From an uncultured Gammaproteobacteria bacterium (lineage in GTDB: Bacteria > Cyanobacteriota > Vampirovibrionia > LMEP-6097), in assembly GCA_964597205.1 (NCBI GenBank), contig CAZQXM010000001.1, forward strand, positions 1 to 51,633: a DNA stretch of 51,633 bases, written 5' to 3'. Under the pieces are notes generated by a model. That model did no database searches. It was given only the letters and a program-made list of their open reading frames with translations, and was not told where the DNA came from. The position numbers were made by a program, and so were the translations under genes. Each line of letters opens with the position of its first letter. Within the stretch, counting starts at the first letter, position 1. Shown here piece after piece: positions 2,864 through 37,876 of this stretch.

Positions 2864-2941
2864 AAGGAAATTGTATCAGCTAATTAAAATTATTCGCTAC
2901 TAGTGCTGGATTTCAGCTAGCTTAAATAGAATTAATTTTCC

Positions 2942-2949
2942 GGGGGGGG
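2942..2949. repeat. G8 homopolymer tract in the folD/fibre-gene-1 divergent promoter region
   Basis: CGGGGGGGGC read directly. It lies 58 nt upstream of the ATG at 3008 and about 20 nt upstream of a GATAAT -10-like hexamer (2969..2974). Confidence 0.9.
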
Positions 2950-3007
2950 CAAATAAAAAAATCTGTCGATAATAGTCTAGGCGCTTAAGCACCTGCAGGA
3001 GAATTCG

Positions 3008-5296
3008 ATGAATAAAAAATATCTAGCACTTGGATTAATATTTTTAACAACAACTAATTTTGTTAAAGCTGAAACTGTCGTTGACGCGAGATTAGATGAG
3101 CGTCTTAATAGCACTTATATCGGTAAAAAATATAACCAGAAATCAACAGCCTATCACAATACAGCATTAGGCTTCAACTCCATGCCTAAAAACTATAGAC
3201 TTGAGAGACCGGGCGTTTATGGTAGCGGCAACTCAGCACTTGGGAGCTACGCTCTATCTGAATTAACTACTGGTGAGTACAACACCGGCGTAGGGCTTGC
3301 AGCTCTACAATTCCTAACTACTGGAAGCAACAATACTGCTATCGGCGAAGGTGCTCTGAATAAAGCTTTGGAGAATTCTAACACCGCTCTTGGTTTTGAA
3401 GCTGGAATAGAACTAACAAAAGGTTCGATGAACACCCTATTAGGTTACAGAGCAGGTAAATCTAGTACTATCAATTTCACAGAAGGTAGTAACAATATTT
3501 TAATTGGTAACGAAGTAAGCACATGCACAGCAAAAGCATCTAATGAATTAAATATCGGCAACCTAATCAAAGGTGTTCTAGCTGGAACTAAGTCTGTGAC
3601 TGTAGATGGTAGCTTTGCGGCTAAGTCACTTAGCACAGCTGGTAATATAGCTGGTCAAACGCTGTCAATCACTGGACAAGGTGGGATTAAGAACCTTTCT
3701 AGCGACTCTATTGCCACTGGAACTCTTTTCAGCCGAGGACAGATTTTAACTAAAGGTATAACAAGTAATGGTGGAGCAGCTGTAACAGTAGGTAATCTAT
3801 TTGTTAGCCAAGGTTATGGAGATTTCTTCGGTGGTGTTACAACTAAAGCTACTGTCCAAGCTGATAAAGCGCTATTTCTTAAACAAAGATCATCAACTGA
3901 TACTGTCCCAACCATACCTAGTGGTTACGCCGGTTTATCAATTCATAATACTGGTAAACTTATGTACCATTCACCTATTACTGGTGAAGTTGCTGCTCCA
4001 GTAATGATAACGGAAGTGGCTAGTATTGGTGATTTAGCAGATGCCAAGACGACAAATGTAGGCGGAAGTATATTTGTTGGACAGAATAGTGGTCGTAGTG
4101 CAGGTGCCAGCTACCGCAATACAGCACTTGGTAGCGATACCATGAAAGAATCAGTAGGAACAACTGACAATACCGCAATTGGTCACTCTGCTTTAACGAA
4201 CAATACACAGGGAAATTATAACGTTGCAATTGGGTCTAACTCTTTGTTTAGTCATAGAACGGGTCATAGCAATATCGCAATCGGTCATACTGCATTATAC
4301 TTTCAAGAATCAAGCTATGACAATATCGCTATAGGTTCTGGTGCAATGTCACAGAACTTAATTGGTTCTGAATCTATAGCTATTGGAACCGAAGCTGGCG
4401 CTTCATCAAGAAAAGGTCGAGGTAATATCAACCTGGGATATCGTGCAGGTATTCGTAATGGTACGGTAGAGGATTATAGTACTGGTGATTACAATATTAA
4501 TATTGGCTATGAAGTTTCTTCTCCATCTAAAGATGGTTCAAACCAATTAAATATCGGCAACCTGATCAAAGGTAATATGGCTACAGGATCTAAGTCTGTG
4601 ACTATTGATGGTAATTTAACAACTACAGGTTTACTTAAAATTGCAGGCGGCAACCCAGGTGTCGGCAAAGTACTTACCTCAGACGCAACTGGTAACGCTA
4701 CTTGGCAAGCGGCTCCAACACCAATAATTGCAGACAATACTATTACTTCATCAAAAATACTTGACGGTTCAGTCAGTTCTGCTGATCTTGCAGTAGGTAG
4801 TGTAAAAGCTAGTCACGTAGGCTTAGGCGCCGTGGGTTCACCGCAAATACTTGATGGTTCTGTTAATGGCTCTGATCTTGCTAACAACAGTGTTTACGAC
4901 AATAAAATTGTAAATGTATCTGCAAGTAAAATCACTGGTGTAATTAGCCCAGCTCAAATACCTACAAATCTAAGTGTTCATACTGTGCAAACTCTTGGTG
5001 TTGGATTAACTACACCTCAGCGCCCTCTCCATATCAAAGATGTAATGCGTTTAGAGCCAAGATCAACTACTCCAAATCCAGCCAGTAAGGGTGATATATT
5101 CATGCACTCGACTGGCGCTCTTTGTGTCTATAATGGCAACAATTGGGATCAAATTAATGCTGGCTTAGCAGATTCTCGCTGTACAGATAGCAGCACTGAG
5201 CCAAGCATACTTTGGCAATTACAAGAAGGCTTAAGGCAACAGGCAGATCCTACTGAGCAGAAGAGATCTTTTGAGAATACACTAGGTAGAGGTTAA
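3008..5296 (+). CDS. Secreted fibre/adhesin-like repeat protein, paralog 1 (YadA-head/Hep_Hag-like repeats, no autotransporter anchor)
   Basis: AGGAG RBS. Sec-type signal peptide MNKKYLALGLIFLTTTNFVKA|ETV. Two blocks of degenerate N(T/S)A(L/I)G..AL repeats, each ending in (E/Q)LNIGNLIKG...KSVT(V/I)DG. GKVLTSDATGNATWQ and ITSSKILDGSV..DLA segments. C-terminal LHIKDVMRLEP...GDIFMHSTGALCVYNGNNWDQI motif. Confidence 0.75.
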   Translation: MNKKYLALGLIFLTTTNFVKAETVVDARLDERLNSTYIGKKYNQKSTAYHNTALGFNSMPKNYRLERPGVYGSGNSALGSYALSELTTGEYNTGVGLAALQFLTTGSNNTAIGEGALNKALENSNTALGFEAGIELTKGSMNTLLGYRAGKSSTINFTEGSNNILIGNEVSTCTAKASNELNIGNLIKGVLAGTKSVTVDGSFAAKSLSTAGNIAGQTLSITGQGGIKNLSSDSIATGTLFSRGQILTKGITSNGGAAVTVGNLFVSQGYGDFFGGVTTKATVQADKALFLKQRSSTDTVPTIPSGYAGLSIHNTGKLMYHSPITGEVAAPVMITEVASIGDLADAKTTNVGGSIFVGQNSGRSAGASYRNTALGSDTMKESVGTTDNTAIGHSALTNNTQGNYNVAIGSNSLFSHRTGHSNIAIGHTALYFQESSYDNIAIGSGAMSQNLIGSESIAIGTEAGASSRKGRGNINLGYRAGIRNGTVEDYSTGDYNINIGYEVSSPSKDGSNQLNIGNLIKGNMATGSKSVTIDGNLTTTGLLKIAGGNPGVGKVLTSDATGNATWQAAPTPIIADNTITSSKILDGSVSSADLAVGSVKASHVGLGAVGSPQILDGSVNGSDLANNSVYDNKIVNVSASKITGVISPAQIPTNLSVHTVQTLGVGLTTPQRPLHIKDVMRLEPRSTTPNPASKGDIFMHSTGALCVYNGNNWDQINAGLADSRCTDSSTEPSILWQLQEGLRQQADPTEQKRSFENTLGRG

Positions 5297-5320
5297 TAAC
5301 AAATAGGCTATTCATTAACA

Positions 5321-5353
5321 AAAAGCCCCCGATTTCTCGAGGGCTTTTTGTTT
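5321..5353 (+). terminator. Rho-independent terminator after fibre gene 1
   Basis: AGCCCCCGA-TTTC-TCGAGGGCT hairpin (9-bp stem, 1 mismatch) followed by TTTTTGTTT. An A-run upstream makes it potentially bidirectional. Confidence 0.8.
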
Positions 5354-5354
5354 C

Positions 5355-5540
5355 TAAATGGATTCTAGCAGCGCTAATTCCGTAATACAAACGCCGCAAT
5401 CCCTAGCTACAAAATGAGAGTTAATTAAGTTAAATATCAAAAATAGGCTTTAGGTCTAAACAACTAATGCCGTTAGTTGAATAAGGAAAAGCCCGCTTTA
5501 GGTATAGAGCCTTGGTGCGTCCCATTATTGAGGAAAATTT
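5355..5540 (+). repeat. Conserved leader/junction segment, copy 1 (upstream of fibre gene 2)
   Basis: About 93% identical by eye to 8868..9052. Contains the hairpin CAACTAA-TGCCG-TTAGTTG (5461..5479) and two GCTTTAGGT motifs (5448..5455, 5496..5503). Confidence 0.85.
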
Positions 5541-8408
5541 ATGAACAAGAAAATCATCGTAGCAGTGTTAGCAGCAACTACACTAAGCAACCTAGCTAGC
5601 CAAGCAGAGACAGTAACGCAAGCAAGAATTGCAACTCCTCAATACAGTACCTATATAGGTCAAGGTTATAACACCGCAGGCTACGGTCAACACAACACTG
5701 CCCTTGGTCACAATGCGCTGCCTAAGGCTGGTAGCAGCTATAACACTGCCGTTGGTAGCCATGCCTTAAGTCAATTAACTAGCGGACAGTTCAACACAGC
5801 AACAGGACTTGGCGCGCTGCAAAACTTAACCACAGGTTCTTACAACACTTCAATGGGTCAAGGCTCTATGGTTTCAGCATCAGGCAGTTCTAGTAACACT
5901 GCTATGGGCTGGTCAGCAATGTACAGCAACACAACTGGTAGCAACAACGTAGCTATCGGTAGAGATGCTGCTAACTATCTAACAACAGGTTCTAATAACG
6001 TTGCTATCGGTAGTAGCGTAGCCGGATCGACTCTGACAACAGGAAGTAACAACATCGTTATCGGTGCTAGTGCGACCCTGCCTAACGCAGCTGGTTGTCA
6101 CCAACTGAATATCGGTAATCTTATTCGCGGTATTATGACTGGAACTAAGTCAGTAACGGTAGATGGAACTTTTGCTGCTAATTCACTCAGCTCAGCAGCT
6201 GGAATTGCTGGTCAATCATTATCAGTAACTGGTGCTGGAACTTTCGGTTCAATTATCAGCACAGGGAATATAGTGAGCTTCGGATCAATTGGTACGACAG
6301 GAGCATTAACCGCAGGAACATTAGCCGTAAGCGGAGCTACCACTCTAGGTGCTGGTGCAACTATCACTAGTGGTAATTTACAAGTAAGTGCTGGTAACGT
6401 TTCTGCGCGCATTGGTAATTTCTCTGGTGGAGTGGAAGTTGGAAGCATTGCTAAATTCGATAAGAACATACTACTTAAGGAATTAGCTGACCAATCTAGC
6501 GTTGCACCACCTGCTGGATATGCAAGTCTATATGTTGGACCAACTGGCACTAAAAGACTTATTTATAAAAGCCCTGATAGCACAATACCTGCAGCAGCAG
6601 TGCTGACAGCTGAAGTTGCAAGAATTGATGAGTTATCAGATGTAATAACTACTTATAGCAGCATCCATATTGGTGCAGCTAGCGGACAAAAAGCTAGTCT
6701 CTGTCAAACTTGCAGTGATAATATCTCTCTTGGTACCTTCAACTTAAGATTGTCTAACTCTGGAGATAGTAATACCGCTCTTGGTTCTTATTCTATGAGT
6801 AATTATAACGGCGGACAAATGAATACCGCAGTAGGAGCTCATTCACTTTGGCAACTTACAAGTGGTAGCACTAACACTGTTGTTGGTCGTTCAGCCCTAT
6901 CAAATATGAGAACCGGAAACAAAAATATTGCTCTAGGTGATCATACGGGACAAAATTTAATGCAGGGTAATGGCAATATTATTATAGGTAGTTACATAAA
7001 CATTGATACAGTTGCAGGAGCTGCTTCAAACGTACTGAATATCGGAAACCTCATCAAAGGTAATATGGCAGCTGGATCTAAGTCAGTGACTATAGATGGT
7101 GCTATTAAGATTGGTTCATCAGAGCTAACAACAATTGGTACTAACAACGAGGTTCTTGTTCTTAAGAATACAACTGCTGGTCGTCCGCAGACATTGATAA
7201 ATACACTCACGGGCTCCTTATACTCAGCAAATATACGAACTGACAACCTATATATAACCAGTGGCAGTCCTCAAATGGGTTATGTGCTTACAGCTAAAGG
7301 TGCTAATGGTAGTGCAATGTGGATGCCAGCACCGACTCCAACAATTGCAGATGGTAGTATCACTTCTGCAAAAATATTAGATGGCACGATTACATCCACA
7401 GATATAGCAGATGGTTCTATCGCTGCAACTGATTTAGCTAACGCTAGCGTAAATAGCGCGAAAATCATTGACGGCTCTATCCTTCCTGTGGATATAGCTA
7501 GCGATTCAATAAGCATTAATGCTCTTAGCGATGTAATAGCAGATAAAGCAAAAAATAGCTTGTTTATCGCAACCAATGGTGGTTATTTAAGTACTGGAAT
7601 CTCAAACATTGGTATTGGTATTACAAGCTTAGGCAAAAATACTACGGGTGCAAACAACACAAGCATAGGTGCTTATAGCTTGCGCGACAACACTACTGGC
7701 GGTGCCAACGTAGCTTTAGGTCAAGCGGCTTTATTAAGAAACACCAGCGGAAACAGCAACACGGCACTAGGTTCTAATTCCTTAGAATACAACTCCACTG
7801 GAGCTACAAACGTTGCAATCGGCGTAACAACTATGAGTCTCAATACATCAGGCTCAAACAATACTGCCCTAGGAACTGGTGCCCTATTCGGTAATATTGA
7901 TGGCAATAACAATATTGGAGTTGGTCCAAATGCTGGCGGCAATATTAGTACTGGTAACGGCAATATCGCAATAGGCGCACACACAGCCGTACCTAATCCT
8001 GCAGGGTCAGACCAATTAAACATCGGCAACCTAATTACAGGTGTTATGACAGCTGGTAATAAGTCAGCAACTATCGATGGACTTCTCAATGTAGCCGGCA
8101 TAATGTCTAGTGCTCTAATAAAAGCTACGACATTACAATCTGACAAACTTAGAGTTGGTTTTGGTGGTAGTAGTCCATTTCAGGAAATAATAAATGCTCA
8201 AATTTTTGCAGCCAAGCCAAACACTCAGTTCTTGCTTAAAGGTTCTATGAATCTAGCACCACAAGCAGGTCCACCAACACTTCCAGCTGGTTACGGACAT
8301 GACATGGGCGACATGTATATGGACGACTCTGGTGCGCTTTGTGTATACAGCGGTACAGCTTGGGAAAAAGTAAGCGGACTTACTAATCCTAATGCTAACT
8401 GTAGCTAA
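5541..8408 (+). CDS. Secreted fibre/adhesin-like repeat protein, paralog 2
   Basis: Signal peptide MNKKIIVAVLAATTLSNLASQA|ETV. Three Hep_Hag-like repeat blocks, each ending in LNIGNLI(R/K/T)G...KS(V/A)T(V/I)DG. C-terminal GDMYMDDSGALCVYSGTAWEKV...NC motif. The first ~300 aa are ~80-85% identical to paralog 3. Confidence 0.75.
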   Translation: MNKKIIVAVLAATTLSNLASQAETVTQARIATPQYSTYIGQGYNTAGYGQHNTALGHNALPKAGSSYNTAVGSHALSQLTSGQFNTATGLGALQNLTTGSYNTSMGQGSMVSASGSSSNTAMGWSAMYSNTTGSNNVAIGRDAANYLTTGSNNVAIGSSVAGSTLTTGSNNIVIGASATLPNAAGCHQLNIGNLIRGIMTGTKSVTVDGTFAANSLSSAAGIAGQSLSVTGAGTFGSIISTGNIVSFGSIGTTGALTAGTLAVSGATTLGAGATITSGNLQVSAGNVSARIGNFSGGVEVGSIAKFDKNILLKELADQSSVAPPAGYASLYVGPTGTKRLIYKSPDSTIPAAAVLTAEVARIDELSDVITTYSSIHIGAASGQKASLCQTCSDNISLGTFNLRLSNSGDSNTALGSYSMSNYNGGQMNTAVGAHSLWQLTSGSTNTVVGRSALSNMRTGNKNIALGDHTGQNLMQGNGNIIIGSYINIDTVAGAASNVLNIGNLIKGNMAAGSKSVTIDGAIKIGSSELTTIGTNNEVLVLKNTTAGRPQTLINTLTGSLYSANIRTDNLYITSGSPQMGYVLTAKGANGSAMWMPAPTPTIADGSITSAKILDGTITSTDIADGSIAATDLANASVNSAKIIDGSILPVDIASDSISINALSDVIADKAKNSLFIATNGGYLSTGISNIGIGITSLGKNTTGANNTSIGAYSLRDNTTGGANVALGQAALLRNTSGNSNTALGSNSLEYNSTGATNVAIGVTTMSLNTSGSNNTALGTGALFGNIDGNNNIGVGPNAGGNISTGNGNIAIGAHTAVPNPAGSDQLNIGNLITGVMTAGNKSATIDGLLNVAGIMSSALIKATTLQSDKLRVGFGGSSPFQEIINAQIFAAKPNTQFLLKGSMNLAPQAGPPTLPAGYGHDMGDMYMDDSGALCVYSGTAWEKVSGLTNPNANCS

Positions 8409-8420
8409 AGGACAAAGACA

Positions 8421-8870
8421 ATGAACAAAATTACTAAAGCCACAGTATTAATAGCCTTCATCGCTGGTACTTTAACTGTAACAGCGGCTGAGACTACTAG
8501 TAACCCAGCGGCACTAATCCTGAATTACCATAATCCAGTTCAGGACATACCGCACTACCATCCAGCAGAAAGCCTGGAGAAGAATCTTGAGAAACACCAA
8601 AGCTACCTTAATACCCTAGCTAAGAAACAAGCAGAAGCAATTAAGACCTGCGAAGAGCTCTATATAAATGGTGAAAGAACTCGCTGCGAAGTTGAAATCA
8701 ACGATGCTTACAAGATGCTAGCGGAGATCCCAGATATTATGGATCACATTGCTCTTGAAGAAGCTAAGCCAGAAGATATTGAGATCGAAGTTGACACTGA
8801 GACGCGTCAAGTAGCTTTCTTCTTGATTAAAAAAGCATTTGGGCATCAAGCGAATAACTTAACACCATAA
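8421..8870 (+). CDS. Small secreted acidic protein, partner of fibre gene 2 (unknown function)
   Basis: 149 aa with an AAGGA RBS, starting 12 nt after the fibre-gene stop. Signal peptide ...LTVTAA|ETT and two Cys (C-x12-C). Nearly identical to 11914..12360. Confidence 0.7.
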   Translation: MNKITKATVLIAFIAGTLTVTAAETTSNPAALILNYHNPVQDIPHYHPAESLEKNLEKHQSYLNTLAKKQAEAIKTCEELYINGERTRCEVEINDAYKMLAEIPDIMDHIALEEAKPEDIEIEVDTETRQVAFFLIKKAFGHQANNLTP

Positions 8871-9052
8871 ATGGATTCTAGCAGCGCTAATTGCGCGATA
8901 CAAACACCGCAATCCCTAGCCTCAAAATGAGAGTTAATTAAGTTCAATATCAAAAATAGACTTTAGGTCTAAACAACTAATGCCGTTAGTTGAATAAGGA
9001 AAGCCCGCTTTAAGTATAGAGCCTTGGTGCGTCCCATTATTGAGGAAAATTT
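8868..9052 (+). repeat. Conserved leader/junction segment, copy 2 (upstream of fibre gene 3)
   Basis: Direct repeat of 5355..5540 that continues into the 5' ~900 bp of the downstream CDS. Confidence 0.85.
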
Positions 9053-11806
9053 ATGAACAAGAAAATCATCGCAGCAGTATTAGCAGCAAGCACTATCAGT
9101 AGTCTAGTTGCTAAAGCAGAGACAGTAACGCAAGCGAGAATTGCTGCTCCAAAATACAGCACCTATATAGGTCAAGGTTTTAACGCCGCTGGCGCAGGTC
9201 AGCACAATACAGCTATTGGTCACAGCGCTATGCCTACTGCTAGTAGCAGCTTTAATACTGCTGTCGGTAGCCATGCACTAAATAAATTAAGCAGCGGACA
9301 ATTTAATACTGGCGTCGGCCTTGGCGCATTGCAAAATTTAACGACAGGTTCAATGAACACTTCAATGGGCCAAGGTTCTATGGTCAGCGCAATTGGCTCA
9401 TCTAGCAACACTGCTATGGGCTGGTCAGCAATGTATAGCAATACTACTGGTAATAATAATGTGGCTATAGGTAAAGATGCTGCTAACTATCTCACCACAG
9501 GTTCTAACAACGTAGCAATCGGCGGTAGCGTAGCTGGATCTAGTTTAACAACTGGTTCTAATAATATTGTAATCGGTGCTAGTGCAACTCTGCCTAGCCC
9601 GACTGGATCTCACCAACTTAATATTGGTAATTTAATCAGAGGTATTATGACTGGTACTAAATCTGTAACAGTAGATGGCAGTTTCGCTGCTAACTCACTA
9701 AGTACAGCTGGTGGAATTGCTGGTGCATCACTGAAGGTAACAGGTCTCAGCACTCTAGGCACAATTACAAGCGGAGCTCTAACTAGCTCAGGGACTGTAA
9801 CAGCAACAGGCTTAAACGTAACTGGTGCTTCTACTCTAGGAGCTGGTGCAACTGTTACTACTGGCAACTTGCAAGTAAGTGCCGGTAATGTTTCTGCGCG
9901 TATTGGTAATTTTAGTGGCGGCGTTACTGTCGGTGATATAGCAACGTTCGACAAACAACTTAGCCTTAAAGAACAAGCGGCACCGACAACTGCAGCACAA
10001 GCAGGTCGCGCGGATCTATATCTAGACCAAACATCTAAGAAACTAGTTCTTCGTGATACTGCTGGTAATTCTCCAATATTAACAACAGAGAGAGCAATAC
10101 TAGGTGAACTTAAAGACGTAAGCTCTAATGATGCTCACTTCAATATCTATATTGGCTCAAATCACAAAGAGACAGACCCTAGTACGGCTCTAAGTAGCGT
10201 CTATGAATACCACAACACGGCTCTAGGTCACAACTCTCAATCTTCAGTTTTTCGCAAAACATGGAACGTAGTAGGCGAGAGAGGCACTGGTAACTCATCT
10301 TTTGGTAGCCATTCATTACAAAAACTTCAATACGGAGAGAACAATACAGCTGTTGGTCTTGCAGCACTTCAATTCGTAGAGACTGGCAGTAACAATACCG
10401 CGATTGGTAACGCAGCCCTGAATGTAGCCAAAGGCTCTTCGAATAGCGCTCTCGGAAACGATTCTTTACTAAAATTACAACAAGGTGCTGATAACGTGGC
10501 ATTTGGAGCTAGTGCTGCGAAGAATTTAACGACAGGAGATCAAAATATAATCATTGGTTCAGCTGCTGGTTATAACCTATCTAAGGGTGGCAATAATATT
10601 TTAATTGGATCTTATGCAGGATTTTCGAATACACCAGAGAAAAATTTGACCTTCGGATCTGACAATATATTAATTGGCACATATGTCACTACCACAAATA
10701 ACAATGCAACGAATGAATTAAATATCGGTAACTTAATTAAAGGTCAACTAGCAGACTTTAATGGCATACCAAAATCTGTCACTATTGAGGGTAATTTATC
10801 TACCACTGGTTCGCTCAAAGTCGCTGGTGGCAGCCCAGCAGCAGGTAAAGTACTAACATCTGATGCTACTGGTAATGCTACATGGCAAGCAGCTCCGACT
10901 TCAACTATTGCAGATGGTAGTATCACTTCCGCAAAAATACTTGATGGCACTATTGGCTCTGCTGATCTTGCAGACAAGAGCGTAACCGATGCAAAAATTG
11001 CCTCTGTAAGTGCTTCAAAGCTTGATTTCACTAATACTCCTAATACTGTAATTGGTAGTAAAGCATTATCAAAATTAAGTTCAGGTAATACAAACATTGC
11101 TATAGGACAAGAAGCTGGATCACAATTACAGTCAGGCTCAAACAATATACTCATTGGTAACAATGTACAAATAGATGTTGAGACAACAAGTAATGGTGAA
11201 ACAATGCCGGCAAACAACATGCTAAACATTGGGGATTTAATCACTGGTTACTTTGGTGACGATTGGAAACACGTCAACATTAAGGGTGACCTTTTCGTGG
11301 ACACCATACAAAATCGCCTACTACAAACAGAGAATGCAGAGATATATCAAAGTCTTTATGCGCCAAATATCAAGACTATGCATCTTGAATCAACGGTTAA
11401 CGGTACATTCTTAACAACCAGCAATGATAACTACATGGTGACAACATCTGCACAAACACTTTGGGAGAAGTATGACGCTGCATACGTAGTTATTTATACT
11501 GATAAACAAACAGCTGTAGATCCTGTGCAGATCAATATAGACTTAAGCGGGTTAAGTCATTACAGTAGAGAAGTAACCTTGCTTTTAGGTGAGATCAGGA
11601 GCACAAGTAATGCTACGTTAACCACCCAAGGTCCTGCGAAACTTAGACTTTGCCAAGGGTCACATACTAGCGTTAATGGCGGGAGGACATTTGGCAACTC
11701 CAATGATCCTGCCGACTGCCAGATGTATTCTGATTTCAACGTCCAGTTTGGCAAAGCATACAAACTGTTTAAGCATGGTGGCAATTGGAGTACAATAAAC
11801 TTCTAA
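9053..11806 (+). CDS. Secreted fibre/adhesin-like repeat protein, paralog 3 (different C-terminal domain)
   Basis: Signal peptide MNKKIIAAVLAASTISSLVAKA|ETV. Same N-terminal module as paralog 2, and shares the GKVLTSDATGNATWQAAPT.TIADGSITSAKILDG patch with paralogs 1 and 2. The last ~170 aa are unrelated to the GD(I/L/M)(F/Y)...C(V/F)Y.G..W terminus of the others. Confidence 0.75.
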   Translation: MNKKIIAAVLAASTISSLVAKAETVTQARIAAPKYSTYIGQGFNAAGAGQHNTAIGHSAMPTASSSFNTAVGSHALNKLSSGQFNTGVGLGALQNLTTGSMNTSMGQGSMVSAIGSSSNTAMGWSAMYSNTTGNNNVAIGKDAANYLTTGSNNVAIGGSVAGSSLTTGSNNIVIGASATLPSPTGSHQLNIGNLIRGIMTGTKSVTVDGSFAANSLSTAGGIAGASLKVTGLSTLGTITSGALTSSGTVTATGLNVTGASTLGAGATVTTGNLQVSAGNVSARIGNFSGGVTVGDIATFDKQLSLKEQAAPTTAAQAGRADLYLDQTSKKLVLRDTAGNSPILTTERAILGELKDVSSNDAHFNIYIGSNHKETDPSTALSSVYEYHNTALGHNSQSSVFRKTWNVVGERGTGNSSFGSHSLQKLQYGENNTAVGLAALQFVETGSNNTAIGNAALNVAKGSSNSALGNDSLLKLQQGADNVAFGASAAKNLTTGDQNIIIGSAAGYNLSKGGNNILIGSYAGFSNTPEKNLTFGSDNILIGTYVTTTNNNATNELNIGNLIKGQLADFNGIPKSVTIEGNLSTTGSLKVAGGSPAAGKVLTSDATGNATWQAAPTSTIADGSITSAKILDGTIGSADLADKSVTDAKIASVSASKLDFTNTPNTVIGSKALSKLSSGNTNIAIGQEAGSQLQSGSNNILIGNNVQIDVETTSNGETMPANNMLNIGDLITGYFGDDWKHVNIKGDLFVDTIQNRLLQTENAEIYQSLYAPNIKTMHLESTVNGTFLTTSNDNYMVTTSAQTLWEKYDAAYVVIYTDKQTAVDPVQINIDLSGLSHYSREVTLLLGEIRSTSNATLTTQGPAKLRLCQGSHTSVNGGRTFGNSNDPADCQMYSDFNVQFGKAYKLFKHGGNWSTINF

Positions 11807-11819
11807 TCAATGTCTAAAT

Positions 11820-11907
11820 GGATTGCTACATCGCTACGCTCCTCGCAATGACAAGTGCCGCGAATGACAGCTGGAGCACAGGGATCCTTCGCTTCGCTCA
11901 GGATGAC
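11820..11907. repeat. Short hairpin-unit repeat family B (units ending in ATGAC), 3 tandem units
   Basis: GGATTGCTACATCGCTACGCTCCTCGCAATGAC / GCCGCGAATGAC / GGGATCCTTCGCTTCGCTCAGGATGAC. Related to 13302..13349 and 37075..37168. Confidence 0.7.
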
Positions 11908-11913
11908 TAAAAC

Positions 11914-12360
11914 ATGAGAAACACCACATCACTACTATTAGCTTTCATCGCCGGCAGTTTCCTGACTGTAACAGCGGCTGAGACTACTAGTAATCCAGCG
12001 GCGCTAATCTTGAATTACCATAATCCAGTTCAGGACATACCGCACTATCATCCAGCAGAAAGCCTGGAGAAGAATCTTGAGAAACACCAAAGCTACCTTA
12101 ATACCCTAGCTAAGAAACAAGCAGAAGCAATTAAGACCTGCGAAGAGCTCTATATAAATGGTGAAAGAACTCGCTGCGAAGTTGAAATCAACGATGCTTA
12201 CAAGATGCTAGCGGAGATCCCAGATATTATGGATCACATTGCTCTTGAAGAAGCTAAGCCTGAAGAGATCGAGATTGAAGTGGACACTGAGACCCGGCAA
12301 GTAGCTTTCTTCTTGATTAAAAAAGCATTTGGGCATCAAGCCAATAATCCTCAGCCATAG
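11914..12360 (+). CDS. Small secreted acidic protein, partner of fibre gene 3 (paralog of 8421..8870)
   Basis: 148 aa. A stretch of >200 nt is identical by eye to the first copy. Only the signal-peptide N-terminus and the last few codons differ. Confidence 0.7.
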   Translation: MRNTTSLLLAFIAGSFLTVTAAETTSNPAALILNYHNPVQDIPHYHPAESLEKNLEKHQSYLNTLAKKQAEAIKTCEELYINGERTRCEVEINDAYKMLAEIPDIMDHIALEEAKPEEIEIEVDTETRQVAFFLIKKAFGHQANNPQP

Positions 12361-12364
12361 CTAA

Positions 12365-13255
12365 TTACATTACATAGAAACTACGATTAACTTCTCTTAC
12401 TAGAGGTTTTAATCCGATCATTTCTCGTATATCGTTTTCAATCTTCTGCGCAATGGTAGTCATAGGAGTATCTGTAGCTCTATTCTCAAAAGGATCTTGC
12501 ATATAGGTTGAGGTGTTCTCAATTAAGAAAAACACTATGGTGATGATTACAGTCAAACTAATCTCAATAAATATTGGGTACTGCTTTAAACTTAACGGGA
12601 ATATAGCCGTGAAAAGATAGATCAAAGAATGAATTAACACGCTATAAGTTTTCGGAAACACGGTGGTTTTGATGCGCTCACAAACGCCCATAGCATCAGT
12701 AAGATCTGCAATAGTCTCGTCTATCCTTACTTGCTGCACAGAATCTAATCCTTGAGTCTTAGCGAGCTTGCAGACTTGATTAGTATGCAAAGTAAGCAAA
12801 GCATTAGGTATATGTTGCTGATCTTTAACTACCTCTATATCAGCCGCACTTAGATACTTACTAATAGTAGCTATTTGATCGAGCCCTCTTAGTCTAAGAC
12901 CCAATGCGTAACACCAGGCGATTTGTCTATTAGCGAAATCCTGAATAAACTCAGGCTCAAGCTTAGTATCAAGTGACATCACCTGTCTAATTAAAGTTCT
13001 TGAACTGTTTACTACAACACCCCAGGCAGCTCTAGCTTCCCACCAGCGTTCATAAGATTGGCTAGTGCGAAATGCTATTAACAGTGAGATCGTGGTACCT
13101 AGTATGGTTGGCGCTGCAATTGGAATAATAATGCCCAGACCAGTATAGTTAGGATCTAATAGTTTAATGCCTATTAAGAACACTAAAATAGCCAGTAATT
13201 CTACTTTGACTTTACCTAGAATGAACCATATTGGTATTCGTTTGTTAATTAGCAC
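12365..13255 (-). CDS. Bestrophin/UPF0187 (YneE-like) family membrane channel protein
   Basis: Multi-TM ORF with FRTSQSYERWWEARAAWG motif, typical of bacterial bestrophin homologues. Confidence 0.7.
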   Translation of the reverse strand: MLINKRIPIWFILGKVKVELLAILVFLIGIKLLDPNYTGLGIIIPIAAPTILGTTISLLIAFRTSQSYERWWEARAAWGVVVNSSRTLIRQVMSLDTKLEPEFIQDFANRQIAWCYALGLRLRGLDQIATISKYLSAADIEVVKDQQHIPNALLTLHTNQVCKLAKTQGLDSVQQVRIDETIADLTDAMGVCERIKTTVFPKTYSVLIHSLIYLFTAIFPLSLKQYPIFIEISLTVIITIVFFLIENTSTYMQDPFENRATDTPMTTIAQKIENDIREMIGLKPLVREVNRSFYVM

Positions 13256-13301
13256 TCTAGCAGATTATAACCGTAGTAAAGGATCTCGGCTAGTTGTAAT
13301 A

Positions 13302-13349
13302 GATTGCTTCGCTTCGCTCGCAATGACAAGCGGAGCGACTCACAATGAC
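13302..13349. repeat. Repeat family B, two tandem units
   Basis: GATTGCTTCGCTTCGCTCGCAATGAC + CGGAGCGACTCACAATGAC. Confidence 0.65.
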
Positions 13350-13351
13350 TA

Positions 13352-13386
13352 CAAAAAAAAAGCCCCCGATTTCTCGAGGGCTTTTC
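13352..13386 (-). terminator. Rho-independent terminator of the RRM gene. The hairpin is identical to the one at 5321..5353.
   Basis: Same AGCCCCCGATTTCTCGAGGGCT hairpin. On the minus strand it is followed by T9. It lies 15 nt after the stop codon. Confidence 0.85.
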
Positions 13387-13397
13387 ATTTTTAGAAT

Positions 13398-23370: not shown

Positions 23371-23955
23371 TTACTGACAGGTATGTTCGTAGAGCAGTTC
23401 AGCTCCAGCTTTACCAAGTTCGCAAGTATCAGAATAAGTTTTCTTAGCTCCGCCTAGTAAACCACAAACCGGCTTATGCTCCAAACAAAAAGTGCTTTGG
23501 ACGGGAATAACATAGTCTTCAAGCGGCAGGTATGAACTGTCACTAACTTTAGTAAAAGTCTTGATGCGCAGTTCGCCATAGTTTACGTAATCGTCATTAG
23601 AACAGACGCTAACACTATTAGGATCTAAATCACAGTCTGCTTGAGATCTCTTCTGAGCTTGCGGTAGTTGCAAGCCAAAACTAAGACTAGGACCATCAAT
23701 TTCAATACTACGCTCACCTAGGATACGCAGTTCGATAAAATCAGTGCGCAATCTTGGCATGATCTGTGCCAAATAAGCTTCAGTAGGGACTCCTAGCACC
23801 TTGATTGAGTACTTGCTATTAGCGTAAAGCTTAAGCGGCGCTCTATCTCCGTACTGTATATCAAGCTGAGTTAAATCTGCGCGTTCAGTAGCTATAGCTG
23901 CCGAACTAAATAAGGCTAATAATAAAGTGCTTAGATTAAGCTGCCAGCTACGCAT
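23371..23955 (-). CDS. Secreted protein with a C-terminal Kazal-like cysteine motif
   Basis: Signal peptide, and C...PVCG...KTYSDTCEL......C at the C-terminus, which resembles a Kazal-type inhibitor domain. Confidence 0.45.
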   Translation of the reverse strand: MRSWQLNLSTLLLALFSSAAIATERADLTQLDIQYGDRAPLKLYANSKYSIKVLGVPTEAYLAQIMPRLRTDFIELRILGERSIEIDGPSLSFGLQLPQAQKRSQADCDLDPNSVSVCSNDDYVNYGELRIKTFTKVSDSSYLPLEDYVIPVQSTFCLEHKPVCGLLGGAKKTYSDTCELGKAGAELLYEHTCQ

Positions 23956-24055: not shown

Positions 24056-24637
24056 TTAGATATTGCACTCGCGTGGTGAGCGCAGAATCGCGCCGTCGGG
24101 TGCGATTCTACTATCAAGTCGCGCAACAATAGACTTCAAATCATCTATCTCTAATTGTTTAGCCTCTGCTTGAGCTTTGTATTTGGCGTTATCACGCTCT
24201 AGCTGCTCTAGCTTACGGCTAAATATATAGTTGTCTTCGACTTGCAAGTTTAATGAAGCGATATTATGCTCAAGCTGATCGATAGAGAGTCTCTGCTGTG
24301 ATTCACGCGCTTGAAACTCTTCTATAATCATTTGATATTGTCTAACTGCTTCACCAAGATAGCGTAGTGGTGAGAGTTCAGCGAATTGACTAAGCGCCGG
24401 TAGTATCTCACTATACTGCTCAGCACAGAGACTTAGATAACGAATATCATGCAAGCTCATACCCTTAAGCACTAAATCATGGATTTTAGCTATGGCTCTA
24501 GCGAGTGTATAGTAATAAGACTGTTGCGGCTCAGCAATACCAAGCTGATTCTCGTAATTAACCAAAACACTTTCAGTAATATTTAACTGATCACGAATTT
24601 CTTTACGAGAAATATATCTACTACTAAGATCCGACAT
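24056..24637 (-). CDS. MerR-like HTH protein with a long C-terminal coiled coil
   Basis: YISRKEIRDQLNITESVLVNYENQLGI...YYYT....I..I..L...GMSLHDI fits the MerR N-terminal pattern. The start overlaps the stop of the upstream SLH gene (TAATG). Confidence 0.5.
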   Translation of the reverse strand: MSDLSSRYISRKEIRDQLNITESVLVNYENQLGIAEPQQSYYYTLARAIAKIHDLVLKGMSLHDIRYLSLCAEQYSEILPALSQFAELSPLRYLGEAVRQYQMIIEEFQARESQQRLSIDQLEHNIASLNLQVEDNYIFSRKLEQLERDNAKYKAQAEAKQLEIDDLKSIVARLDSRIAPDGAILRSPRECNI

Positions 24638-25752
24638 TAATGCATCTCCTGCAAGGTTTGGTGGATTTCTTGGATAAGCTCGCCGTCAAGTTCTTGGCTA
24701 CTGTGATACTCGTGACTATCTTCAACTTTTGTTGCTTTAGGACTAGGTGCTTGAGCTTTAGCTGTTTCATAGCTTGGTGCTGCACTGCGCTGCAAAGGTG
24801 GTGTCTGCATGCGCGGCACATAACTATGAGTACCAGTATCTTGAATCGGAGTTACCTGTTTAGGTTCTTCAACTTTTTTAGTTTCAACCTTTGTTTCTAC
24901 TGTTGTTTTTTTAACTGTTTTTTTGGTCTCAACAACCGGTGGAGTGACTGGAGCTGGCTCTGCTTCTGGTTCTGCCTCTATAACTGGAGCCTCTTCTTGA
25001 GGTTCTTCTACCTCTGTAACAGTTTTAACAGTCTTAGTAACAGTCTCTACAGCGGCCTTAGCAGGTAATGGCACCACTACCTGTTCTATAACTTCAGCAT
25101 CAACTTCTTTAGTTCTATTAAAATCTTTTTTACCTTTATCGTCATTATTAGTAATTTTCTTAGCAGCATAGACGATACCTTTGGCTGCAGTGTTCGCATC
25201 ATTAGCTACACCTTTAATAAGAGTGCCGTATATAAGTCCACGATTTTTGAGCTTCTCAACATCGCCTTTAATTACAGCAATCTCAGCACCAGTTGCATCT
25301 ATCTTAGTAGAAACTTCTTCGCTCTGCTCTTGCACCGCACCAACAGTGCCATAGACAATACCAAGCTCTGAACTGATCTTACTGAGTTTTGCATCAATAG
25401 CACTAAGTTCGTTTTGGAATTGCTCCATGATATTAACTAGGCTAGCTAAATCTTCTCTATCCTCTAGTAGTTCACGATTATTGTTACTAATAAGATTAGA
25501 TAGTGCTATCGCCATCTCATAACGAGTGATAGGAGTATTACCGCGAAAAGCACCGTTAGGATCACCAACCATTACGCCACTCTCATAAAGTTCTCGCACT
25601 TCATCAGCTGCCCAATGATTCGCCGGAACATCTCTCAAAGCTTTAGGTGGAACTGCCTTAGATCGAGCAAGACTTGGAGCTATTAGGCTTAGAGTCAAGG
25701 GGATTATCACGAGTAATTTGAGGCGCTTATTCATACATCTATAGTCTATCAA
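24637..25752 (-). CDS. SLH-domain envelope protein with a coiled-coil and Pro/Glu/Lys/Thr/Val-rich tail. The likely start is Met at 25734.
   Basis: Signal peptide MNKRLKLLVIIPLTLSLIAPSLA. SLH motif VPANHWAADEVRELYESGVMVGDPNGAFRGNTPITRYEMA. No beta-barrel-like C-terminus. Confidence 0.8.
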   Translation of the reverse strand: MIDYRCMNKRLKLLVIIPLTLSLIAPSLARSKAVPPKALRDVPANHWAADEVRELYESGVMVGDPNGAFRGNTPITRYEMAIALSNLISNNNRELLEDREDLASLVNIMEQFQNELSAIDAKLSKISSELGIVYGTVGAVQEQSEEVSTKIDATGAEIAVIKGDVEKLKNRGLIYGTLIKGVANDANTAAKGIVYAAKKITNNDDKGKKDFNRTKEVDAEVIEQVVVPLPAKAAVETVTKTVKTVTEVEEPQEEAPVIEAEPEAEPAPVTPPVVETKKTVKKTTVETKVETKKVEEPKQVTPIQDTGTHSYVPRMQTPPLQRSAAPSYETAKAQAPSPKATKVEDSHEYHSSQELDGELIQEIHQTLQEMH

Positions 25753-30445: not shown

Positions 30446-31243
30446 TTACTTAGTTTTGTATTCTAAATTAAAGTCTTTCGCGATTAATTCTTTCAAGTCA
30501 TCATCTAGCGTTGATTTAACGAAACGATAGCCACCATGGCGAGATTGGGCATGGGTATAAAAAACTACTATTCGTTTTTCGGCAGTATTAAAGCAAGTTG
30601 GCTCAAATTCAACTATGGAAAACTTTCTATGTTTCTTGTGCTTACTAAAACGTTTCAAGTCGTAAGCACTAAACTTTTCAAAAAAACTATTGGAAGGATA
30701 ATCACTTAACATTGAAACCTGATCACAAACTTTTACATAGTCTCCTGCTTCGTTTTTGGTAACAACTATCGCTTTTTGTAAATCTTGATTAGGATGACTA
30801 GACGAATAAGTCCTATCGTATGTTGCTTTATCGTACATAAGTGCAAGAGGTATGCCAATAATGCCCAACCCCGCACCCATAGCCAAACCCAATGCTATAT
30901 CTTTTGCTGTATCTGAAGAATCAGCTTTTAAGCCAGTATCCTTTTTTAATTTAGTTCCTCGGTCACCTACTTCTTGAAGTATTTTATCCCTAGTAGGTAT
31001 AACTAATATTGATACCGTGTCCTTCAAAACAGTTGGGTGCGTCTCTTGCAAGGGTGAAGCTTCATAACGTAAATGTGCTTGGTTATGCTTAGCTGTTTCT
31101 ACTTCTATGTTATATATTATGGTGCCTTTAGCCGCTGGTAAAATACCATGCTTGTAGTAAGCATCGTTCGGCTTTTTCTCGCGCTGTTCAGCAAAACTTG
31201 GTAGTAAGCTAAATATAGTTATAAAAATTGCTATTAGTCTCAT
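30446..31243 (-). CDS. Secreted/membrane hypothetical protein, paralog of 37877..38443 with an inserted glycine-zipper TM segment
   Basis: Signal peptide. Shares KDTVS(I/V)LV(I/V) and HRK..I.EFEP(T/S)CF blocks with 37877..38443. Confidence 0.55.
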   Translation of the reverse strand: MRLIAIFITIFSLLPSFAEQREKKPNDAYYKHGILPAAKGTIIYNIEVETAKHNQAHLRYEASPLQETHPTVLKDTVSILVIPTRDKILQEVGDRGTKLKKDTGLKADSSDTAKDIALGLAMGAGLGIIGIPLALMYDKATYDRTYSSSHPNQDLQKAIVVTKNEAGDYVKVCDQVSMLSDYPSNSFFEKFSAYDLKRFSKHKKHRKFSIVEFEPTCFNTAEKRIVVFYTHAQSRHGGYRFVKSTLDDDLKELIAKDFNLEYKTK

Positions 31244-33575: not shown

Positions 33576-34559
33576 CTATTTTAGCTTAATGGTGATGGTA
33601 TTGCTCTTGTATTCGCCACCACGAGTGAGGAACAGCTGATATTCACCTTTAGCCCACTTCTTATCAGCCATAATAGTCAAGACATTATTCTCTGAATCCT
33701 CAGTTCTTACTGAACTTACAGGAGCTTCGAATTGTTTTTGAGATTTAATTTCAGTGAACTTCAAGACGTTCTCACTAGGCTCACTAGAGAAGTACTTACC
33801 ATTGAGTTGTATATCGGCACCAAGTACAAACTCAGCTTTATCAGCAGCTGGTGCTACTAGTTCAGGGTACATATAACGATAAGTTTCTAAGAAATAATCA
33901 TCTTCTTTACCTTCATTGCTAATATGCAAGCTTCCACTAAGTTCAAAACCGACACTAGATTTACGCAAAGTGCCAGTGAAGTCAAAACCATAAGTTAGTT
34001 TAGTGTAAACATTATTGTCTTTAGCGAATTGAATATTCCAGGTATCTTTACCATTACCTTTGGCTTCCCAATAAAATCTCTGAGTAATATTTCTAAATGT
34101 CAGCATACCAATACCCACATCATCAGCGGGATCTAGAGGTAGTAGAACTATTTTTACTAAACGCGATTTGTCTATCTTCGGTTTAACAACAGCAACAACG
34201 GGTGCTTCAGTTTTAGTTTCTTCTTCGCCTTTTTTCTTTTTCGAAGATTTTTTCTCTTCTGGTTTTTTTTCTTCGACTTTTTTCTCAGGCTCTTTAGTCG
34301 CGGCAGCACCGTTAGCTGTTGCGCCATTAGCAGCAGCAAGAGTCTCAGCGGCTAACTTAGCGGCTTTCTCGGCTTGAGCAGCTTCCTCAAGCTTCTCATC
34401 TTGAAACTGCCAAGTACCGGTGAAATCACCAACTGGAATCTCAGCGCCAGTATCAATAGCTCCTGGTACAACCTTGTTAATTAGATCCTGCACCATGCCA
34501 CATCCGCTTAAAGAGAATAAGAAGGCAAAAACAAAAGTTAATTTATATAAACGAAGCAC
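33576..34559 (-). CDS. Lipoprotein of unknown function with an Ala/Lys/Glu-rich linker
   Basis: Lipobox LSGC and a low-complexity KEPEKKVEEKKPEEKK region. Confidence 0.55.
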   Translation of the reverse strand: MLRLYKLTFVFAFLFSLSGCGMVQDLINKVVPGAIDTGAEIPVGDFTGTWQFQDEKLEEAAQAEKAAKLAAETLAAANGATANGAAATKEPEKKVEEKKPEEKKSSKKKKGEEETKTEAPVVAVVKPKIDKSRLVKIVLLPLDPADDVGIGMLTFRNITQRFYWEAKGNGKDTWNIQFAKDNNVYTKLTYGFDFTGTLRKSSVGFELSGSLHISNEGKEDDYFLETYRYMYPELVAPAADKAEFVLGADIQLNGKYFSSEPSENVLKFTEIKSQKQFEAPVSSVRTEDSENNVLTIMADKKWAKGEYQLFLTRGGEYKSNTITIKLK

Positions 34560-36871: not shown

Positions 36872-37851
36872 TGTTCGATTTACAAGTTAATGGGCTAACT
36901 ATCTTAGATCGTGGTTTGCATTGTGACTTTTGGCAGGCGCCCGCAAATGCTGATATAGAGAAGCTTTGCGACTATCTGGGTTCGGAAGGGGTTACAGGCT
37001 TCTATGCGACGCTGATTACGGCGCCGTATGAGGAGATTGATAGGAATTTGGCGAGAATAAGTAATTATTACCATTGTCATTCTGAGCAGTTCGCTGACGC
37101 TCACTGCAGGCTTCGCGAAGAATCTCCATTCAAACAAGAAGGGGTCCTTCGCGATGCTCAGGATGACAGGGCACACTTAGCAGGTGTCCACGTCGAAGGC
37201 GGCTATATAAGCCGTGCTGGCATTCACCCTAGTGCTCATTTGCGCGAATTTGATTTAGTTAAAGTGCGCTCTTTAGTAGAAAAATATCCTGGCTTAATTA
37301 AACTCTGGACTCTATGCCCCTTAGTAGATAGTGACGGTGCTCTCACTAAATATCTTCAAAGCCAAGGCGTGCGTGTTGCTTACGGACATAGCAATGCTAG
37401 TGCTAATCAGGCAGATAGGGCTTTTGATGCTTATGGCGTGGATCTAGTAACTCACTGGCCTAATGCTATGACTGTAGTTCGCGACCCACTTAATTCTAGT
37501 CGCTTCGATCATCGCAAGCCTAGTGCTGAATATTTAGAGTTTCTCTCTATGTCGCGTAGTGAGGCTGAAGCTTGGGCTAGCGTGCAAGGATTAGAGCTAG
37601 GTTTGGGTTTTAGTGCTTATCATCGAGAGGATGTAAGCGTTACTGCTATCTGCGGTAGTGTCGCTGATGGGGATTTACATATGGCGCCAGAAATATTTAA
37701 ATTACTAAGAGCACATAAAGGCACTCAATTATTCTTAGTTTCAGATGATGTAGCTTACAGTACTGAAGAGCTTAAAACCGGGCGCATACTAGGTCTTAGA
37801 GGTGGCAGAGTATCACTTGCTAAACATTTTATTAACGCAGAAAAAATATGA
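36871..37851 (+). CDS. NagA-like amidohydrolase (N-acetylglucosamine-6-phosphate deacetylase family), short form with a repeat-derived insertion
   Basis: DLQVNG, TLIT, GVHVEGGYIS, GHSNAS and THWPNAM align with remembered NagA motifs. There are ~30 extra aa between the SNYY and GVHVEG regions. Confidence 0.55.
   Translation: MFDLQVNGLTILDRGLHCDFWQAPANADIEKLCDYLGSEGVTGFYATLITAPYEEIDRNLARISNYYHCHSEQFADAHCRLREESPFKQEGVLRDAQDDRAHLAGVHVEGGYISRAGIHPSAHLREFDLVKVRSLVEKYPGLIKLWTLCPLVDSDGALTKYLQSQGVRVAYGHSNASANQADRAFDAYGVDLVTHWPNAMTVVRDPLNSSRFDHRKPSAEYLEFLSMSRSEAEAWASVQGLELGLGFSAYHREDVSVTAICGSVADGDLHMAPEIFKLLRAHKGTQLFLVSDDVAYSTEELKTGRILGLRGGRVSLAKHFINAEKI
37075..37168. repeat. Repeat family B element (inverted pair TGTCATTCTGAGCA ... 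TGCTCAGGATGACA) inside the nagA-like CDS
   Basis: 13/14 complementary termini. The internal CTTCGCGAAGAATC and GTCCTTCGCGATGCTCAGGATGAC units match family B and are translated in frame. Confidence 0.7.
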
Positions 37852-37876
37852 TAAATTATTCAGCGGAGGAATTATT

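Follow-up and report, generated by a model that had tools for sequence, protein, structure and literature searches.

Background

The superfamily of mosaic adhesive trimer (MAT) proteins of Bdellovibrio bacteriovorus, described in 2024, comprises homotrimeric surface fibres with a conserved N-terminus and swappable tips, which may be of the S74 or a non-S74 type (Caulton et al. 2024, PMC10769870). In these proteins the signal peptide is followed by a beta-rich N-terminal domain of ~130 amino acids (aa), which is conserved among MATs, and the beta-helix carries a capping-loop motif, V-G-G/N-pi-x-x-P-x-x-x-L (PMC10769870). Neither an anchor nor an anchoring route is known for MAT fibres (PMC10769870). 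We analyzed a 51,633-bp stretch of DNA (contig CAZQXM010000001.1; hereafter, the window) containing a tandem array of three genes for large exported fibre-like proteins (P1-P3), two small partner open reading frames (ORFs) and, at a distance, a fourth fibre paralog (P4). With a rough probability of 0.62, P1-P4 are Sec-exported, probably trimeric, phage-tail-fibre-like adhesins that are functionally equivalent to the non-S74 ('NS74') MAT fibres of Bdellovibrio.

The fibre system is real, but it is not categorically new, since it has a precedent in MAT fibres. An earlier note on this DNA had proposed a chromosomal surface-fibre system as the most likely candidate for an undescribed system. The genes are indeed chromosomal, and their products Sec-exported, iterated and fibre-like, but 'undescribed system' was too strong a term, given the MAT precedent, the more than 3,378 relatives of the head module and the modules held in common with phage and giant-virus fibres. 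Findings that go beyond that note are the Vampirovibrionia host, the variable island, the cassette-like tips and a fibre-linked orphan family of partner proteins.

Fibre genes P1-P3 and their head modules

The array is composed of three plus-strand ORFs in tandem: P1 (3008-5296; 762 aa), P2 (5541-8408; 955 aa) and P3 (9053-11806; 917 aa). Each of the encoded proteins starts with a Sec-type signal peptide, consisting of MNKK, a hydrophobic core and VKA, SQA or AKA ahead of E. The peak 10-aa hydropathy is 2.25-2.52 in P1-P3 and 2.25-2.61 when both partner ORFs are included; a basic n-region, a hydrophobic core and an A-x-A-type site are present in all five proteins. P1, P2 and P3 contain two, three and three head modules, respectively, each closed by LNIG(N/D)LI.G (n=8 copies), and a stalk rich in G, S, T and A follows the first head. 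The ORFs, the hydropathy profiles and the module counts are in agreement with the earlier note, which had described three same-strand genes of 762, 955 and 917 aa with Sec signal peptides and two to three iterated modules per protein.

The eight aligned heads follow a common plan: a start of the form '..(A/E)xxARI..L.D....S.YIG', 6-9 repeats, and the ending QLNIGNLIxG...KSVTxDG. The motif AETV..AR...STYIG, previously regarded as a conserved protein start, is present, but it is not a special N-terminal feature, since every head opens in this way, including the internal ones (e.g. LTAEVARIDEL..SSIHIG). The repeat has a period of 17 aa (N-T-A-x-G-x-x-A-L-x-x-N-T-T-G-x-x). In autocorrelation analysis, offset 17 was the sole positive peak in 8/8 heads, with an identity of 0.30 vs 0.05 at offset 14, and the ~14-aa repeat suggested before has to be replaced accordingly. 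QLNIGNLIxG lies in register as the final 17-aa turn of the head, which also removes the 'neck-like element' of the same note.

The AlphaFold2 (AF2) model of the full-length P3 monomer had a mean predicted local distance difference test (pLDDT) score of 57, with values of 80-93 in the heads and without long helices outside the signal peptide. The head alone (P3 residues 23-215), modelled from an alignment of 37 head-module sequences, reached a pLDDT of 75 and a predicted TM-score (pTM) of 0.77, and displayed one short strand per 16-17 residues. A Foldseek search of the PDB with the full-length P3 model, in which the heads alone are well modelled, was uninformative. For the head model, the best matches in the PDB were weak and corresponded to heads of trimeric autotransporter adhesins (TAAs), namely CbpF (9GH5), BpaC (7O23), YadA (1P9H), BoaA (3S6L) and EibD, with E-values of 0.08-0.7 and TM-scores of 0.3-0.46 (BpaC 7O23: probability 0.82, TM 0.40); left-handed beta-helix acyltransferases were interleaved with them. 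The search of BFVD, which holds predicted viral structures, yielded 60 matches at E<=1e-3 with TM-scores up to 0.78, including S74/intramolecular-chaperone fibre proteins, 'YadA-like head domain' proteins and a T4-like proximal tail fibre. On the basis of these models, the head is predicted to be a left-handed beta-roll module typical of viral fibres, which is kin to TAA heads at the level of fold class only. At this level the Hep_Hag/YadA resemblance seen in the earlier note may be retained, but it is not accompanied by any sequence or profile match, and the period is 17 aa. The Pfam and Foldseek check proposed there gave no Pfam match, and the AlphaFold monomer heads matched TAA heads only weakly.

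In P1, the signal peptide (residues 1-21) precedes head 1 (23-207), the G/S/T/A stalk and head 2 (346-540). The distal part of this protein contains, in order, a GKVLTSDATGNATWQ segment, 10-aa ITS.KILDG repeats, the capping-loop-like sequence LGVGLTTPQRPLHI and a tip formed by a small Cys-Cys domain (GDIFMHSTGALCVYNGNNWD) with a hydrophilic tail. P2 is composed of the signal peptide, three heads (23-215, 355-525 and 658-852) and stalk, with a distal part made up of a GYVLTAKGANGSAMW segment, ITSAKILDG repeats and a small Cys-Cys tip (GDMYMDDSGALCVYSGTAWE). The N-terminal ~320 aa of P3 are close to those of P2 (72-89% identity of the underlying DNA), and its second head differs from that of P2. 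Its distal part carries a GKVLTSDATGNATWQ segment with ITSAKILDG repeats, a mini-head (residues about 660-750) and a unique tip of ~170 aa, which contains two Cys and has the C-terminal end ..GGNWSTINF. This tip had no phage match and an AF2 pLDDT below 50, and the only relative seen was the end of a metagenomic protein, P0006, with weak similarity over ~54 aa.

The first heads of P2 and P3 share 86% identity, vs 43% for P1 and P3. The stalk segment encoded at 6108-6620 (P2) is common to P3 and to another metagenomic relative, P0002. A capping-loop motif is found in P1 (LGVGLTTPQRPLHI) and in P4 (IGIGINKPARTLHI and IGRYNPISTLDV), and in neither P2 nor P3. The C-termini of P1, P2 and P4 are small Cys-Cys domains or hydrophilic tails.

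Sequence relatives

Searches of Pfam and NCBIfam with P1-P3 and both partner proteins gave no matches (anchor and sorting domains of the fibres being sought at E<=1), and PDB sequence searches with P1-P3 and with the head, partner and tip profiles found nothing meaningful. In PHROGs, the fibres matched a tail spike group (phrog_4636) and the virion structural groups phrog_6002 and phrog_23837, with E-values of 1e-18 to 1e-46. In tblastn searches of phage genomes, the heads matched tail-fibre and structural proteins (37-44% identity) of pelagiphages, roseophages, cyanomyoviruses, an Achromobacter N4-like phage and others. The GKVLTSDATGNATWQ/ITSAKILDG segment showed weak but significant matches to phage tail-fibre, tail-spike and minor-tail/structural proteins, which supports the tail-fibre likeness that had been ascribed to the GKVLTSDATGNATWQ and ITS.KILDG segments.

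Among 5.8 billion proteins searched, more than 3,378 relatives of the head module were found. Metagenomic proteins of the same architecture are the closest, i.e. P0002 (46% identity over the full length), P0003 and P0006; the remainder are mostly 1,000-1,650 aa long. Most of the relatives for which a source is named belong to Bacteroidota and are called 'tail fiber domain-containing protein', many of them with Peptidase_S74 (PF13884), and an S74-like motif is located near the C-terminus in 55 of the top 120 relatives. In the JGI annotation, some homologs are named 'trimeric autotransporter adhesin'. Signal peptides are present in the named cellular relatives and absent from head-bearing proteins on viral contigs. 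A scan of the GTDB representative genomes, a set that does not include the genome of the window, revealed only distant loci in Bacteroidota and alphaproteobacteria.

Mosaic structure of the array

The P2 and P3 genes, each together with its partner gene, constitute a tandem duplication of about 3.5 kb. Upstream of P2, the promoter/5'UTR region (5355-5540, plus strand) is 94-95% identical to the stretch upstream of P3 (8868-9052, plus strand), which is a duplicate of it. Along the two units, the identity is 95% in the upstream region and 72-89% over the initial ~1 kb of the gene; it drops to 35-50% in the half encoding the tip, apart from a single peak of 78% at the ITSAKILDG segment, and returns to 88-100% in the partner gene. 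The metagenomic proteins P0002, P0003 and P0006 have near-identical N-terminal regions of the P2/P3 type and three different tips, and in locus L014 a P1-type tip is followed by a partner gene. Conserved 5' ends and partner genes around divergent tips form a mosaic, swappable-cassette pattern.

Small partner ORFs

Partner ORF 1 (8421-8870, plus strand; 149 aa) encodes a protein with a signal peptide (..VTA ahead of AE), two conserved Cys and no known domain. The product of partner ORF 2 (11914-12360, plus strand; 148 aa) shares 94% identity with it, and the core DNA of the two genes is 98-100% identical. When 1.84 billion representative proteins were searched exhaustively with HMMER, only 3 clusters of this family were detected, and matches were found in none of Pfam, NCBIfam, PHROGs, PDB and IMG/VR. 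The alignment displays two invariant Cys and the conserved motifs LNYxNP and ARxxAFxLxKxAF.

A fibre-like gene adjoins the partner gene in 10 of the 12 copies examined, including relatives at 28-34% identity, which argues against coincidental adjacency. As regards the remaining two copies, one lies on a contig too short to judge and the other (L019) has different neighbours. Distant partner relatives are located beside an S74 fibre gene in L017 and, in L020 and L021, next to arrays of several fibre genes, to which the partner is oriented convergently. The partner represents an orphan family linked to fibre genes. It is not tip-specific, because the two window copies, which follow different tips, are 94% identical, and it may act as a generic fibre helper.

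The arrays in L020 (8432-15929) and L021 (426-4330) contain three or four different exported fibre-like genes beside the distant partner homolog, among them genes encoding (i) a headed protein, (ii) a protein with capping loops and a Gly-rich domain (PF21722) and (iii) a protein weakly matching the C-terminal domain of phage depolymerase. A BRO-N gene adjoins the fibre array in L020.

The fourth paralog, P4

The earlier note had placed the three-gene array correctly, but a further paralog lies outside it, at 39695-42499 on the minus strand. P4 (934 aa) has a signal peptide, as do all of the other paralogs, and an extra N-terminal domain of ~200 aa. Its head (residues 229-402) shares 49-50% identity with head 1 of P2 and P3, its further heads are degenerate, its tip is of the P1 type and its PHROG matches are the same as those of the array proteins. 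There is no partner ORF adjoining P4.

Anchor and secretion route

Inspection of the fibre proteins revealed no sorting domains of the type IX secretion system (T9SS; C-terminal domain), sortase, S-layer homology (SLH) or two-partner secretion type (Pfam, NCBIfam), no LPxTG or SDxxxK motif and no match to PF13884. T9SS, sortase and SLH cargo as well as two-partner secretion were therefore rejected, as these sorting domains and motifs were not found, and so was an S74 fibre in the case of the window proteins, which have neither PF13884 nor SDxxxK, though their heads are homologous to those of S74 proteins. Neither TpsB-like nor usher-like genes were detected among the scanned ORFs of the window. 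Two statements of the earlier note are upheld by these scans: that no YadA barrel, sortase, T9SS or SLH anchor is visible (Pfam and NCBIfam gave nothing at E<=1, and LPxTG is absent) and that an export or anchoring partner is not recognizable, since no known domain or gene of this kind was found.

A 371-aa protein with an N-terminal SLH domain is encoded at 24637-25752 (minus strand), in the same region as the Skp (two copies), LpxD and IspF genes. Such a setting is compatible with an OmpM-type tether that links the outer membrane to peptidoglycan, as known from cyanobacteria and other diderm Terrabacteria.

Host and genomic neighbourhood

The MnmA protein encoded in the window shares 63-68% identity with proteins of Caenarcaniphilales, Melainabacteria and 'Cyanobacteria bacterium REEB446', and about 50% with those of Obscuribacterales and photosynthetic cyanobacteria. 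On these identities, the host belongs to Vampirovibrionia, and the window is a piece of Vampirovibrionia chromosome of a Caenarcaniphilales-like type. Vampirovibrionia are the non-photosynthetic sister lineage of cyanobacteria and include an algal predator. No adhesins described for Vampirovibrionia or Caenarcaniphilales were found in a literature search.

The housekeeping neighbours of the array encode FolD, a protein with an RNA recognition motif (RRM), FlgK, FlgL, MnmA, PyrB, GrpE and TruA as well as the SLH-domain protein, IspF, LpxD, Skp, GlyQ and polysaccharide synthesis proteins. Locus L011, from a related population (86% nucleotide identity), is collinear with the window: L011 2424-9967 corresponds to window 20974-13354, and L011 9985-10875 to window 2879-1989 (blastn). 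Since the RRM gene and FolD are adjacent in L011, window positions 2880-13353 constitute a 10.5-kb indel (the 'island'), which contains P1-P3, both partner genes and one bestrophin gene. With a GC content of 0.40-0.43, the island does not differ from the rest of the window. Locus L013, from another population, shows the order fibre 3' end, partner, bestrophin, hairpin and RRM gene that is seen at the right end of the island, which is thus present in some related populations. A link of the array to the flagellar genes FlgK and FlgL was rejected, since synteny is otherwise maintained in this region and the array has been inserted between FolD and the RRM gene.

The bestrophin-family channel gene (12365-13255, minus strand) lies within the indel and follows the partner gene in L013 too; it matches phrog_35011, a group of unknown function (E 2e-32). 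At the right border of the indel lies the intrinsic-terminator hairpin of the RRM gene (13354-13393, minus strand). A second, 90% identical copy of this hairpin, intrinsic-terminator-like, is located after P1 (5317-5356), and the presence of this 40-nt copy suggests that P1 and the RRM gene became separated through insertion, or expansion, of the block from P2 to bestrophin. Between P3 and partner ORF 2 there is a short dispersed repeat resembling a miniature inverted-repeat transposable element (MITE; 11815-11910), a related copy of which (about 13295-13350) is found at the right border of the island as well. Its sequence includes ..GATTGCTTCGCT.CGCTC.CGCAATGAC.., and kin of this repeat occur 3' of fibre or partner genes in L012 (2680-2810), L013 (about 1490-1530) and L014 (about 1020-1060). 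The MITE-like repeat might mark recombination or insertion sites.

An AbiEi-like (DUF6088)/AbiEii toxin-antitoxin pair (276-1988) represents a second indel with respect to L011, where NuoA directly follows FolD. Scans for RNA and tRNA genes found none in the window. Several ORFs have neither a Pfam nor a PHROG match (47665-49440, 33576-34559, 23371-23955 and 24056-24637 on the minus strand; 36871-37851 on the plus strand) or lack a Pfam match (30446-31243, 39090-39626 and 49933-50439, minus; 37802-38443 and 38533-39093, plus). Some of the unmatched ORFs have a signal peptide or a lipoprotein-like N-terminus, e.g. 39090-39626, just downstream of P4.

Proposed mode of action and alternative explanations

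If P1-P4 are MAT-like adhesins, the signal peptide, which is seen in the sequence, would take the chain to the periplasm and presumably be cleaved there. The chains would then probably trimerize into a beaded fibre, as suggested by the homologous phage fibres and the S74-bearing relatives, with rigid heads alternating with thin G/S/T/A stalks and decapeptide-repeat segments. Each head is predicted to be a left-handed beta-roll with one 17-residue turn per repeat and the QLNIGNLIxG turn as its cap. By analogy, the conserved N-terminal head would lie on the cell side, leaving the variable C-terminal tip to bind a ligand carried by another cell or particle. New specificities could arise by recombination, the conserved 5' head region and the partner gene serving as flanks for the exchange of the tip half. 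The small secreted partner, whose genomic linkage to the fibres is observed, would be a lineage-restricted helper that is not tip-specific; it may act in the periplasm as an assembly or export factor, or as a surface-attachment factor.

Several points weigh against this interpretation. Surface display, trimerization, orientation, ligand binding and the role of the partner are inferred. The structure models cover monomers only, the stalks and tip of P3 are modelled at pLDDT <50, and the matches of the head model to solved structures are all non-significant (no Foldseek match in the PDB at E<=1e-3). The MAT beta-helix capping-loop motif is missing from P2 and P3, while P1 and P4 carry one or two. 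No secretion system and no secretion or anchoring genes were recognized near the array among the scanned ORFs. The superfamily is also abundant in non-predatory Bacteroidota, and membership does not therefore imply a role in cell-cell attachment.

Alternatively, the fibres might be exported without being anchored to the cell, for example as released or loosely associated fibres of a matrix or sheath, as lectin-like, agglutinating fibres or as a coat resembling an S-layer, the partner then being an unrelated small periplasmic protein. The signal peptides occur in fibres in which an anchor of any kind was not found, the mature N-terminus is a plain head start without a dedicated attachment domain, and a secretion or anchoring partner gene is missing from the vicinity. 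We nevertheless regard such a function as unlikely, though worth keeping in view: a conserved N-terminus, variable tips and several paralogs are typical of end-attached receptor-binding fibres, both of phages and of the MAT type (PMC10769870), and the partner is tied to fibre genes even in relatives at 28-34% identity. In a different reading, very improbable in our judgement, the genes would encode tail fibres for a phage-derived particle whose other genes lie elsewhere in the genome (a prophage, a tailocin or an extracellular contractile injection system), or would be left over from an element of this kind. Every recognizable module is common to phage tail-fibre or virion proteins, the array sits in an indel with respect to a related population, and a small gene follows the fibre gene, as phage chaperone genes do. 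However, the Sec signal peptides on all four paralogs are incompatible with cytoplasmic virion assembly and are absent from homologs on viral contigs. No capsid, tail, baseplate, sheath, lysis or integrase genes were found in the indel or among the scanned ORFs of the 51.6-kb window, as the earlier note had also observed for phage structural and lysis genes. The GC content of the island matches that of the surrounding chromosome, and the partner has no relative in IMG/VR or PHROGs.

The weak fold matches of the head to CbpF, BpaC, YadA, BoaA and EibD, the best among solved structures, together with the JGI names of some homologs and the aromatic last residue of P3 (..WSTINF), raise the question of whether the fibres are TAAs (type Vc) with an unrecognized anchor. 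This can practically be dismissed. YadA_anchor (PF03895) had no match at E<=1 in P1-P3 or at E<=0.01 in P4, YadA_head/Hep_Hag (PF05658) had none at E<=1 in P1-P3, and the head profile retrieved no TAA chain from the PDB at E<=1. The repeats have a period of 17 aa and not 14, a coiled-coil stalk is not predicted, the 'neck' motif is the last turn of the head, and the C-termini of P1, P2 and P4 are small Cys-Cys domains or hydrophilic tails; moreover, every one of the fold matches has E>=0.08, and left-handed beta-helix enzymes are scattered among them. In a bolder version of the surface-fibre interpretation, the fibres and the partner would constitute an undescribed lineage-specific mode of assembly, export or attachment of phage-like fibres on the OmpM/SLH-tethered outer membrane of Vampirovibrionia, with the partner as a dedicated adaptor or chaperone and the fibres attaching to other cells, such as prey or hosts; Vampirovibrionia would then be a second lineage, independent of Bdellovibrio, with a predatory or epibiotic habit. 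This is a speculative and rather doubtful proposition.

With MAT-like adhesins as the preferred explanation, the variable repertoire of exported phage-type fibres provides candidate genes for attachment to cells or particles in Vampirovibrionia. Although bacteria and viruses carry the head module in abundance, the window proteins had no Pfam match, and a solved structure with significant similarity was not found. The orphan partner family and the route of export and anchoring of the fibres most deserve follow-up, as the former offers a handle on how anchorless fibres are assembled, exported and held on a diderm surface, a question common to MAT fibres.

Comparison with known systems

By functional analogy, the partner resembles the Tfa/gp38-type chaperones in being encoded by a small gene just 3' of a fibre gene without an intramolecular chaperone. 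Searches of PHROGs, Pfam, PDB and IMG/VR revealed no homology, however, and the partner differs in that it carries a signal peptide of its own along with two conserved Cys, is not tip-specific and, in distant relatives, is convergent and not co-transcribed with the fibre gene.

Among solved structures, the TAA heads (YadA 1P9H, BpaC 7O23, BoaA 3S6L and CbpF 9GH5) are nearest to the window heads, with which they share the left-handed parallel beta-roll fold class and short Asn/Gly-containing repeats; their period is 14 vs 17 here. Neither a sequence or profile match nor a TAA neck, coiled coil or beta-barrel anchor was found in the window fibres. The head module is also present in phage and giant-virus fibres, such as the tail fibre of pelagiphage HTVC111P, the 'T4-like proximal tail fiber' of Prochlorococcus phage P-SSM2 and an S74 protein of Tupanvirus. 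Here the likeness concerns both head fold and repeats (37-44% identity over the heads, BFVD TM-score up to 0.78). Viral fibres have no signal peptide and are encoded within virion gene clusters, whereas the products of the window genes are exported and the genes chromosomal.

True homologs of the heads (E to 1e-97) occur in the 'tail fiber domain-containing' and 'beta strand repeat-containing' proteins of Bacteroidota (PF13884, PF26696), in which 17-aa repeats, the NIGNLI end-turn, GxxLTSDxxGxxxW segments and N-terminal signal peptides are found as well. No experimental studies of these S74 proteins were retrieved in a literature search. They are mostly 1,000-1,650 aa in length, the window proteins being shorter, and 7 of 11 named examples have a VGIGTTxPxAxL capping loop right after the signal peptide, which the window proteins lack. 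About half of the top 120 relatives end in an S74 intramolecular chaperone, also absent from the window proteins.

The MAT fibres differ from those of the window in several respects. Their host belongs to Bdellovibrionota vs Vampirovibrionia here, and their body is mainly a trimeric beta-helix with capping loops, whereas the window proteins are built of iterated 17-residue beta-roll heads and are accompanied by a small partner gene. Within the window, the N-terminal head is conserved between P2 and P3, but P4 starts with a different domain of ~200 aa. The likeness is one of architecture, the PDB holding only C-terminal MAT fragments. It includes (i) large Sec-exported fibres (about 600-1,100 aa) encoded by several paralogs, (ii) a conserved N-terminal region with exchanged C-terminal tips, (iii) phage fibre or tailspike modules, (iv) disulfide tips and (v) the absence of a recognizable membrane anchor or dedicated secretion partner. 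On this comparison, a 'MAT-like' strategy would extend beyond Bdellovibrio.

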